From Hormiphora californensis (Eukaryota; Animalia; Ctenophora): 64,000 nucleotides of DNA. Shown piece by piece: positions 46,083-61,250 of the stretch. The stretch is taken from contig CM035352.1 in assembly GCA_020137815.1 (NCBI GenBank), forward strand, positions 4,092,001 through 4,156,000. Reading direction: 5' to 3'. The translations under genes were made by a program, and so were the position numbers. The notes under the pieces were generated by a model. It worked only from the letters and a program-made list of their open reading frames with translations. It was not told where the DNA came from and searched no databases. Each line of letters starts with the position of its first letter. The first letter of the stretch is position 1.

Positions 46083-46123
46083 CTCAAATTAATTTGTTTA
46101 AAGTAGTGTTGAAAAGTTTAGAC
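46083..46123 (-). other. Spliced-leader exon sequence at the 5' end of L2 copy 1
   Basis: The reverse complement of 46083-46119 is AAACTTTTCAACACTACTTTAAACAAATTAATTTGAG, identical to 61171-61207. Confidence 0.8.
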
Positions 46124-49100
46124 ATTATATATTATAATCAAGATATACTATATATAACTCAGATATATCTCTACATAACAAGGGAGTCCCACAACAATTT
46201 AAAAAGGGGTGCACGGTAAAATGGGTAGCCTCAAGAAATATGGTTATATTATGAAGTTAGCTAGAAACATAAACATGACCTAACAGATGCAATTACTAGC
46301 CGGGCAGGGGTGCCTGCTGTTGCCAAATCGGTTCTGGGAGTTACAACCGCGACGGTGACAGTTAGAAAAGAAAACCACGCACACATAGCTCAGCTGGCGA
46401 ACCATTTTCAGAGCAACTAATTACCAGGCACATCACCGGCCCAAAAATAGTGCGAGTGTGTGCGATGAAATTAGAAACGCGCTGTGTGCAGTATCATACG
46501 GGGGACAACGTGTTAACAGAGATTTGGATGAATGCCCCCTGCCATGCAAAGTGCGTGTAAAAACGCTACACGCAAATAAAATGGGAGAATGAGAGAGAAA
46601 AAAGAAGAGAATGAAAGAAGAGAGAGAGGGAGAGAGAGAGAGAGAGATAGAGAGAGAGAGAGAGAGAGAGAGAGAGAGGAGAGAGAGAGAGAGAGAGAGA
46701 GAGAGAGAGAGAGAGAGAGAGAGAGGAGAGAGAGAGGAGAGAGAGAGAGAGAGAGAGAGAGAGAGAGAGAGAGAGAGAGAGAGCAGAGAGGGAGAGAGAG
46801 AGAGAGAGAGAGAGAGAGAGAGAGAGAGAGAGAGAGAGAGAGAGAGAGGGAGAGAGCGAGAGAGAGAGAGAGAGAGAGAGAGAGAGAGAGAGGAAAGAGA
46901 GAGATAGAGAGAGGGATAGAGAGAATGAGTAAAATGCAGCTTAGACGGCGGAGAGAAAAGTAAGAGACTGACAAAAGAGAAGAAAGAGATATATTCTGGG
47001 AAGGAGAAATAAAGAAGAGACAGTATAGCAAAGAGAGATAAACAAGCAAACAAGCAGAATATCACGTGTTACCACGTGACTCATCTTGATTAAAAGTGTG
47101 TCCCCCTCAGCGGTAAAGGGAGGGATCGGAGGGAAGAGAGTGAGGGAGGGATATGGAGAGGGTGTGAGAGAGGAGAGAACACATGGCGATAGAGCGAGGA
47201 AGAGAAATGAATAAAAGAGCATATTTAGAAATAAGATGCGGAGTCAAAAAGGACCGAATCGAAGAGGGCAAATATGCAAAATAGAGTTGCAGCACACGGA
47301 ATAAAACGGAAAAAGAATAGAAAACGGGAGACAATAAGGGATGTTACAAAATGTCATGGAAACATATATCACATACAAAATAGGGTGTCTGTGCCTAAAT
47401 TTCTCATTTTAAAGCAGCTGTATGCAGCAATACATACAGTGAAGGAAAGCAGTGCTTTCAAAGCACAGACTCCTTTCTCTCCTCTCTCTCTCTCTCTCTC
47501 TCTCTCTCTCTCTCTCTCTCTCTCAGCGCGGCTGAGTCCGTTTCCGCTAAGTACTAATTGTGTTAGAGTGTGTGCTGGGACACACACACCATGTGTCACA
47601 CAAACACACGAACACTGTTCATGACATACTGAGAGATGGAGAGAGAGAGATAGAGAGAGAAAGAGAGAGAGAGAGAGAGAGAGAGAGAGAGAGAGAGAGA
47701 GAGAGAAAGAGAGATACAGAGAGAGAGAGAGAGAGAGAGAGAAAAGGATAGAGAGAAGAAAGAAAGAGAAATACCGAATACGCGGAGAGAAATTACAGAA
47801 AATGAAAGTGAAACTCAAACAAGAAACACAAGAAATTCAATATAATGACGTCAAAACAGCACTCGAGTGCCAAATTATTAACTCACCCTTTTGTTGGCCT
47901 GGTTAGCACAGTCATATTACTTGTTAAAAATAAATAAGAGGAGGAGAGGGAGAAATCGAGGATAAATAGAGACAGAGGGAAAAGCAGAGAGAGAGAGAGA
48001 GAAAGAGCTGATGGGAAATCTCACTATGCCGACACAGGGCAGTACAGTAAGCTCACCCAAAAGAGACACTCCTACATTAGTAAACACGATACTTACTCAG
48101 TAATTATAAATTGAGAATGCGAAAGGGGGAGAGAGAGAGAGATAGAGAAGGAGAGGAGGGGAGGAGCGGAGTGGAAGAGAGAGATAAGAGAGGAGAGAGC
48201 GAGAGTAAAAGAAAACGCTGAGAGAGAGGGTATTATGCAACCATATAATGTTATGCAGTGACAATACAAAATATATTGCAGCTAGATAATTAATATAGTT
48301 GCTCAATGCAACAACAACAGCAGCTGTAAAAGCGCATTATAATAGCGAAGAGGAGGAGGAAAATCAACGAAGCCAATGAACGAAGGGTGTATTATAATAC
48401 GCGTGCAGACTTTTTAGAAACTACGAGAATTGTACTGGTAGGAGAGAGAGAAGACAGACGTAGGGAGGGAGAGAGAGATATAAGAGATTTAGGAAACAGA
48501 GAGAACACAAGATATAACTGGAAGACGTCTGTCTCTGTCGGAGAGAGATAAGGTAAATTAGAAACAATAGATCATCAATTGCATTGGGAAGTAAAAATAG
48601 TAGTTTTTATTTGAGTACACGAGGTATCTCCACCACACTATGACGTACCAACTAAGATGACGCATCTACCAGACAAATTGCAATTGCGTTTTCAATTTGT
48701 GATGAAATTGAAAGCAGCACCCATACGAATTTAATATACAGAGACCTGAGAATATAACGCCTGTTGTTTCCTGTCACAGTGCAACCGCAACACATGACAG
48801 TATTAAACAGTGACTACAGCTGCTGACAGGAATTCAGTAACAGTACCTGAACAAACAGAATGAACACTCTCTCAGATCTGCAGGGGGTTCAGGTATCAAA
48901 CTGATATTATAAAGATGAGAGGAGGTATCTCCGCTAGCGATCAGATAATTACTGGTTTAGCGTCCTTTCTCTATTCTTTCTCTCTTTCTCTCGCTCTATC
49001 TTTCCCTCTCTATCTCTCTCCCTCTATCTCTGGCTCTCTTTTATTCTTTACTCCCTATTTTTCTTTTTCTTGACTCTCATAACTCATCATATCCATCTCC

Positions 49101-49280
49101 ATACTTTCTCCTTGCAACTACTTACTACCATGCTCTCTCTCTCTCTCACTCTACTTTCTCTCTCCCTCTCTCCTTGGCGACTGTTTACCCTCCCTCCCCC
49201 GATGTTATCACTATGACAACACAAGGAGTAGTATTGATCAGCCAAAAACACAGAGTGGTACTTGGTAGAGAGTATAATTT

Positions 49281-61150: not shown

Positions 61151-61165
61151 AAGTTTTTTTTTTTT

Positions 61166-61207
61166 GTTTCAAACTTTTCAACACTACTTTAAACAAATTA
61201 ATTTGAG
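61166..61207 (+). other. Spliced-leader exon sequence fused to the 5' UTR of the CRE element
   Basis: GTTTCAAACTTTTCAACACTACTTTAAACAAATTAATTTGAG matches the Pleurobrachia-type SL as I recall it. It is followed by AT, not the GT donor of an SL RNA gene. Confidence 0.8.
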
Positions 61208-61250
61208 ATCTCTTCCCACCCGGCCCTTGGCGGTCGGTTTAGGTGCAGCA

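Follow-up and report, generated by a model that had tools for sequence, protein, structure and literature searches.

Two unrelated retrotransposons of the non-LTR type (lacking long terminal repeats, LTRs) in a 64,000-nt stretch of the genome of the ctenophore Hormiphora californensis (contig CM035352.1; 'the window') were found to begin with a copy of the host spliced leader (SL) exon, and these SL-headed copies were very probably made from trans-spliced element RNA that was copied back into DNA. One element is a long interspersed nuclear element (LINE) of the L2/CR1 group on the minus strand, headed by the last 37 nt of the exon (46083-46119), and the other is a CRE-like element on the plus strand, headed by 42 nt of it (61166-61207). 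An earlier sequence-only reading of this DNA had reported an identical sense-orientation 37-mer at the 5' ends of both, and exact matches were indeed recovered at 46083-46119 (minus strand) and 61171-61207 (plus strand), while any match was obtained in none of 100 shuffled sequences. The length of 37 nt applied to the L2 copy only, since the match at the CRE-like element extends over 42 nt. The bases directly following the leader are TT (L2) and AT (CRE), and not the GT of a splice donor, and the first ATG was located at +141 and +44, respectively, as expected from the distances given in that reading (approximately 140 nt and 43 nt); its description of the flanks as unrelated also agreed with the 5' untranslated regions (UTRs), which are without convincing similarity.

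The 37-mer had been taken for the host SL, and this identification was supported by the published sequence, by contigs from run X9, and by the exon of an SL gene. The ctenophore leader given in a passage of the Hormiphora genome paper is 44 nt long and includes the 37-mer, with 718 genomic copies in Hormiphora and 491 in Mnemiopsis (PMC8527503); the CRE copy matches 42 and the L2 copy 37 of these 44 nt. In that passage the dispersed copies are not tied to retroelements (PMC8527503). In run X9 (labelled Hormiphora californensis, RNA type guessed), all 449 records placed on positions 58140-64000 fell in the bin containing the leader, those listed continued into unrelated sequence, and no variant sites were seen over the SL. 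A metagenome locus (L003, positions 1-1945), possibly from another species than H. californensis, is a true ctenophore-type SL RNA gene, located together with 5S rRNA in a tandem unit of 778 bp, in which the SL exon is followed by a GT donor and the SL intron; a search of this locus for an Sm-site pattern gave no match. In L003 a C precedes the exon's AG start, so this gene provides no template for the initial G of the published 44-nt leader. The SL pattern had no match in viral contigs or prokaryote genomes.

Neither window copy is itself an SL RNA gene, as both lack a donor and SL intron downstream as well as a 5S-linked unit or SL promoter upstream. Outside the exon neither matched L003, with which no upstream sequence is shared, and Rfam gave no match in the window. 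A further noisy reading of the SL-L2 joint (55260-55297, minus strand) lies inside an assembly duplicate, the two parts of which (38638-46681 and 47922-55841; approximately 8 kb) are 89.7% identical. The differences were mostly indels (55 gap columns and 5 mismatches in the UTR and the first open reading frame, ORF1; 4 gap columns and no mismatches in the 3' flank), and the L2 insertion was very likely read twice, so that the window holds two independent insertions. The duplicate noted in the sequence-only reading at approximately 55260-55297 is thus present, but very likely represents the same L2 insertion assembled twice and not a separate one.

The same arrangement was found at other loci. 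Metagenomes were scanned for SL stretches with at least 51 upstream bases, the first of which was not C, a rule that excludes SL-capped cDNA contigs and, by chance, some genomic copies. The scan produced four stretches representing three distinct loci: the SL gene L003, and two LINE-type 5' ends with SL (L001 and L002). L002 carries 35 nt of SL, followed by an ORF1 (39% identical to that of the window L2) and an APE domain. This locus was also considered as an SL gene, GT following the SL, and was rejected as such since the sequence that comes next differs from the SL intron and passes into a LINE UTR and then ORF1. L001 (positions 54-1258, from the same metagenome as L003) consists of an A/T-rich flank, 42 nt of SL and an ORF to which Pfam, a PDB sequence search and Atlas gave no name. 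The family of this ORF folds like LINE-1 ORF1p (ORF1p for all of the top 10 Foldseek matches, best E-value 1.7e-5), based on a model of moderate quality (pLDDT 65, pTM 0.32) built on P0121, which is 97% identical over the L001 C-terminal piece. The LINE ORF1-like gene is the only one in view at L001, and its relatives occupy contigs 0.75-2.5 kb in length, as would suit a non-autonomous family with ORF1 alone.

The SL parts of the four elements were 100% identical to L003 over 42 (CRE), 37 (L2), 42 (L001) and 35 nt (L002), and in all four the joint lies exactly at the donor position, with no SL intron. Similarity among the UTRs was at shuffle level for five of the six pairs, the remaining pair reaching 0.01 (uncorrected), and the four UTRs are without convincing similarity. 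Reverse transcription of trans-spliced RNA is expected to leave just such a pattern, a joint made by the exon alone at exactly the donor position and uneven 5' ends close to the cap. By this route the spliceosome would add the SL to element RNA, target-primed reverse transcription would copy the SL-headed RNA as far as the cap or close to it, and the 5' ends at 42, 42, 37 and 35 nt would mark the stops of the cDNA. The sequence-only reading had proposed that element RNAs were trans-spliced and then copied to the cap; the exact joints beside four unrelated UTRs agree with copying of trans-spliced RNA, and the CRE copy and L001 begin at the same base of the SL, as fits copying to a cap. Tandem SL-SL relics, named there as a possible trace, were not seen, as a second SL was found in none of the four elements (flanks of 54 nt, 151 nt and kilobases).

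Alternatively, the reverse transcriptase could have switched template to SL-capped RNA, which is abundant, as synthesis was ending, or assembly chimeras could have produced the joints. Fusion of small RNAs to the 5' end of LINEs does occur, as seen in U6-L1 chimeras, and the window assembly is noisy and includes false duplicates. Such events would have to account for a joint at the exact donor position in four of four elements without SL intron, for contigs passing from the L2 UTR into the SL in DNA runs of two samples, and for a truncated L2 copy without SL in the same window, and we regard them as highly unlikely. A different origin, relevant above all to the CRE copy, would be insertion at SL exon DNA, in which case the SL would be the target or a target duplication and not part of the element RNA. 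Passages in two sources describe insertion of trypanosomatid CRE-clade elements into SL RNA genes at a constant position, with formation of target duplications (PMC12278014, PMC3636483), and the 3' end of the window CRE is beyond the window; this live rival for the CRE copy was overlooked in the sequence-only reading, as were the flatworm SL-headed retroelements considered below. However, what lies upstream of the CRE leader is neither an SL-gene promoter nor a 5S unit, but a run of T together with a short repeat and the single-copy region of RIOK2. A contig over 60741-61054 had single-copy depth in DNA run X3, which together with the lack of a 5S gene or SL promoter shows that the CRE copy is not in an SL array. 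L001 likewise shares nothing upstream of the exon with L003, even though both are from the same metagenome, and the same anatomy is present in APE-type and ORF1-type elements. Only insertion at a dispersed SL copy is left for this explanation, which is quite improbable.

The SL was also observed at the 5' end of L2 beyond the window copy. Four sequencing runs were compared with the L2 5' end; the reference included only 26 nt of SL, so that no contig meets the 31-base bridging rule. In X3, 91 contigs were placed on the L2 5' end, of which 4 were partial and none left at the UTR/SL joint; all 4 partial contigs appear to be among those listed (four rows, two of which read as one contig), and contig depth extended down to 4.75. 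A contig from a subfamily that differs in 12 places over 140 nt (approximately 9%) runs 13 nt into the SL in X3, and a contig from run X5 runs 20 nt into it. For X5, 12 contigs were partial, 6 rows are among those listed and up to approximately 7 of the 8 unlisted loose-end rows are probably from this run; contigs also drop rare variants. SL heading appears to be family-wide for L2 in X3. The question raised in the sequence-only reading, whether most full-length LINE copies start with SL inside target-site duplications, was thereby answered in part for L2: no non-SL 5' form was present among the X3 contigs, but no target-site duplication was clear. A loose end in X5 at 46042, where 10 nt resembling SL precede a diverged UTR, was too degenerate and was not used. 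Depth over L2 ORF1 was 1728, relative to 30-46 for single-copy contigs, suggesting approximately 25-50 copies, and depth over CRE was 121-160, suggesting approximately 2-4 copies; both estimates are rough, depth not being copy number.

These data bear on a model in which a few source elements retain their own promoter, outron and YAG acceptor, whereas the SL-headed daughters are mostly dead ends, comparable to SL-tagged processed pseudogenes. It does not require the GAG at the SL end to function as an acceptor and fits the wording used for flatworm loci in passages of two papers (PMC12582326, PMC5832876), and rare forms can escape contigs, the X5 rows being only partly listed. Yet the X3 contigs, which reach a depth of 4.75 and include apparently all four partial ones among those listed, held no non-SL form at the joint, and no outron-bearing source of L2 was seen among them. 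The joint is common to two L2 subfamilies approximately 9% apart, and a lineage would be expected to die out if every daughter lost the promoter. The model is considered rather unlikely.

If the SL-headed copies are instead themselves the source of new copies, with neither promoter nor ribozyme and with the terminal GAG reused as acceptor, a complete renewal cycle would result, to which we assign a probability a little below one half. As suggested in the sequence-only reading, host read-through transcripts would be trans-spliced again at the final AG of the genomic leader, whereby the leader would be renewed. The AG-free, A/T-rich body of the SL followed by its final AG would allow any host read-through to be converted, by trimming and capping, into a precise element mRNA; in the 42-nt copy the only AG is the last one, and A+T content is 76%. 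No ribozyme, such as the HDV-like one that heads LINEs of the R2 and L1Tc type, was matched by Rfam around either window 5' end at E ≤ 1, a search that divergent ribozymes can escape. More generally, ctenophore LINEs of both endonuclease classes may have dispensed with a promoter or ribozyme of their own, the SL having become a portable trans-splice acceptor, a proposal we put forward tentatively at just under an even chance.

Several observations weigh against the renewal cycle, of which the GAG acceptor is one clear weakness. The candidate acceptor at the SL end is GAG with a weak tract (43% pyrimidine), whereas host acceptors from the RIOK2 region were YAG in five of five cases with 79-93% pyrimidine (one confirmed by RNA), and flatworm SL acceptors match UUNYAG in the part of the source concerned (PMC12582326). 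Stronger YAG sites are present in the UTRs, at +6 in L001, at +32, +54 and +65 in L2, and at +35 and +41 in CRE, and these sites, 6-65 nt past the SL, appear unused. Repeated re-splicing should lead to occasional use of an internal YAG and hence to a shorter element, but no joint of the SL to an internal AG of the L2 UTR was seen among the listed matches of contigs on the L2 5' end. No RNA of a re-spliced element was recovered, and the same holds for empty sites and target duplications. At the L2 joint a single RNA contig was present; it had a depth of 2 and ran 11 nt into the SL, so that read-through and trans-splicing are inseparable there, and no RNA contig crossed the CRE joint.

Persistence of the downstream YAG sites would be accounted for if the SL had been captured once or rarely, and if its DNA copy together with UTR signals now set the start of transcription at its own first bases, with no re-splicing. 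In nematodes, an internal promoter element is located within the SL exon. For retroposed DinoSL, a promoter role has been proposed in a passage on dinoflagellates (PMC6050394). The copies, however, are without the first base or more of the SL gene (42, 37, 42 and 35 nt), and in the case of such a promoter the ends would erode or take flank sequence. The same start base and perfect SL in two unrelated families fit fresh addition better, and the promoter explanation is judged unlikely.

The minus-strand element extends from the leader through ORF1, endonuclease and reverse transcriptase to an (ATT)n tail at approximately 40060-40075. It is an L2/CR1-group LINE, with an ORF1, an ORF2 containing APE and reverse transcriptase domains, a simple-repeat tail and 5'-truncated copies; the more specific L2 label is presumed from C-terminal motifs. 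The 140-nt 5' UTR (45943-46082) holds the three acceptor-like sites mentioned above, all TAG, and is followed by ORF1 (44730-45942, 3' end approximate), the frames of which are broken by sequence noise; the 39% identity to L002 ORF1 was measured on the duplicate (54242-54769). ORF2 (41735-44720, ends approximate) encodes the endonuclease and reverse transcriptase, as seen from RVT_1 in the duplicate and from tblastn matches to both domains, also in noise-broken frames. The 3' UTR and tail (40060-41734) share their 3' end with a 5'-truncated copy at 58090-58160. This truncated L2 relative, which spans 58090-59575 (minus strand) within an intron of RIOK2, starts without SL and serves as an internal control. 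The element called a full-length L2 in the sequence-only reading is therefore full-length in extent, but its frames are broken by noise and its 3' UTR is interrupted by a foldback. This foldback (40099-41438, duplicate 49322-50662) is 1.34 kb long, near-perfect, with termini CACGG/CCGTG and a 4-bp target duplication, and is inserted approximately 25 nt before the tail; its termini presumably resemble those of Chapaev-type DNA transposons. Further long palindromes are located at 24333-25968 and 26678-27684, and the RNase H and zinc-finger end of another LINE was found at 7368-8375 (minus strand), with no leader found upstream.

The plus-strand element, with a 43-nt 5' UTR (61208-61250; TAG at +35, CAG at +41) and a single ORF (61251-64000) open for 916 codons to the window end, where it runs off, is CRE-like as judged from its predicted protein. 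Elements of the CRE clade (R2 group) have one ORF with an N-terminal zinc finger, a reverse transcriptase and a restriction-like endonuclease at the C-terminus. Of 7996 candidates scored against the ORF, 429 were relatives at E ≤ 1e-20, their names being uninformative, and viral contigs and prokaryote genomes yielded none. A PHD finger was matched at an E-value of 2.4e-4, under the curated cut-off, and a PDB sequence search gave PHD fingers only, while a weak reverse transcriptase match was seen in close relatives. In the relative P0001 (89% identical), a CCHC motif and a nuclease-like tail, which we take to be such from its motif, were recognized by eye. Short contigs inside the CRE ORF from RNA run X7 (depth approximately 3) were not taken as proof of expression. 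The host RIOK2 gene (57400-60757, minus strand), with a first intron (60046-60130) that is spliced in X7, is head to head with the CRE copy; its first coding exon and putative trans-splice acceptor are at 60113-60757, the two ATGs are approximately 500 bp apart, and RIOK2 is a possible source of read-through transcription for the CRE copy. A hairpin-like repeat of approximately 55 nt was found at 60996-61050, 61085-61140 and 10524-10606, one copy being 25 nt upstream of the CRE leader; its depth in DNA runs was approximately 20,000 relative to approximately 35, with many different flanks and indel variants. Elsewhere in the window, a noisy tandem pair (23404-29672 and 30099-33549) looks like assembly redundancy, and a long uninterrupted frame at 3-1337 (minus strand) encodes a POU-homeodomain protein.

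In every round a LINE must restore an exact 5' end, and the means known for this are an internal promoter and a ribozyme that cleaves itself. If the renewal cycle holds, host trans-splicing would add a third such means, common to unrelated clades in one phylum. An origin from trans-spliced RNA would account for many of the 491-718 unexplained ctenophore leader copies, and if the SL acts as a portable acceptor, such elements would have given rise to most of the SL copies dispersed in ctenophore genomes. SL heading would also mark full-length copies, and would explain leader-bearing reads that mis-map into false shared first exons. Even without a renewal cycle, SL-headed retroelements would be extended to ctenophores.

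No report of SL-headed LINEs in ctenophores or of a self-renewing acceptor was found in a literature search that left most subscription journals and Repbase reports outside its range. SL-headed retroelements are already known from flatworms; what is new here is their presence in ctenophores, with near-complete SL and in two endonuclease classes. According to passages of two papers, parasitic flatworms have SL-bearing LTR and LINE loci that are read as integrated trans-spliced RNA (597 discarded loci in PMC12582326, six elements in PMC5832876) and that resemble the window copies in joining a retroelement to a genomic SL exon that lacks SL-gene features. In those passages the leaders are mostly partial and are mentioned in passing, without family-level analysis or a renewal cycle, whereas the SL in the window is near-complete and apparently family-wide for L2 in one run. 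In Hydra, approximately 30% of transposon Iso-Seq reads carry SL (PMC12220107), so that transposon RNAs are trans-spliced there too, but the evidence given in that part of the source is at the RNA level only, with no claim of SL at the start of genomic copies. In dinoflagellates, SL-tagged retrogenes received their SL in DNA through retroposition, the DNA copy being proposed to aid expression; as described in the passage concerned, they differ in being host genes and not autonomous elements, and in accumulating tandem relics (PMC6050394), none of which were seen here. The elements CRE1/CRE2, SLACS, CZAR and NeSL, of the restriction-like endonuclease type with a single ORF, adjoin SL exon DNA and sit inside SL RNA genes in the portions of the sources consulted (PMC12278014, PMC3636483, PMC4640811), whereas the window CRE, flanked by the single-copy RIOK2 region, occupies a single-copy host locus with no SL promoter and is not placed in an SL RNA gene array of the CRE1/SLACS/CZAR type.

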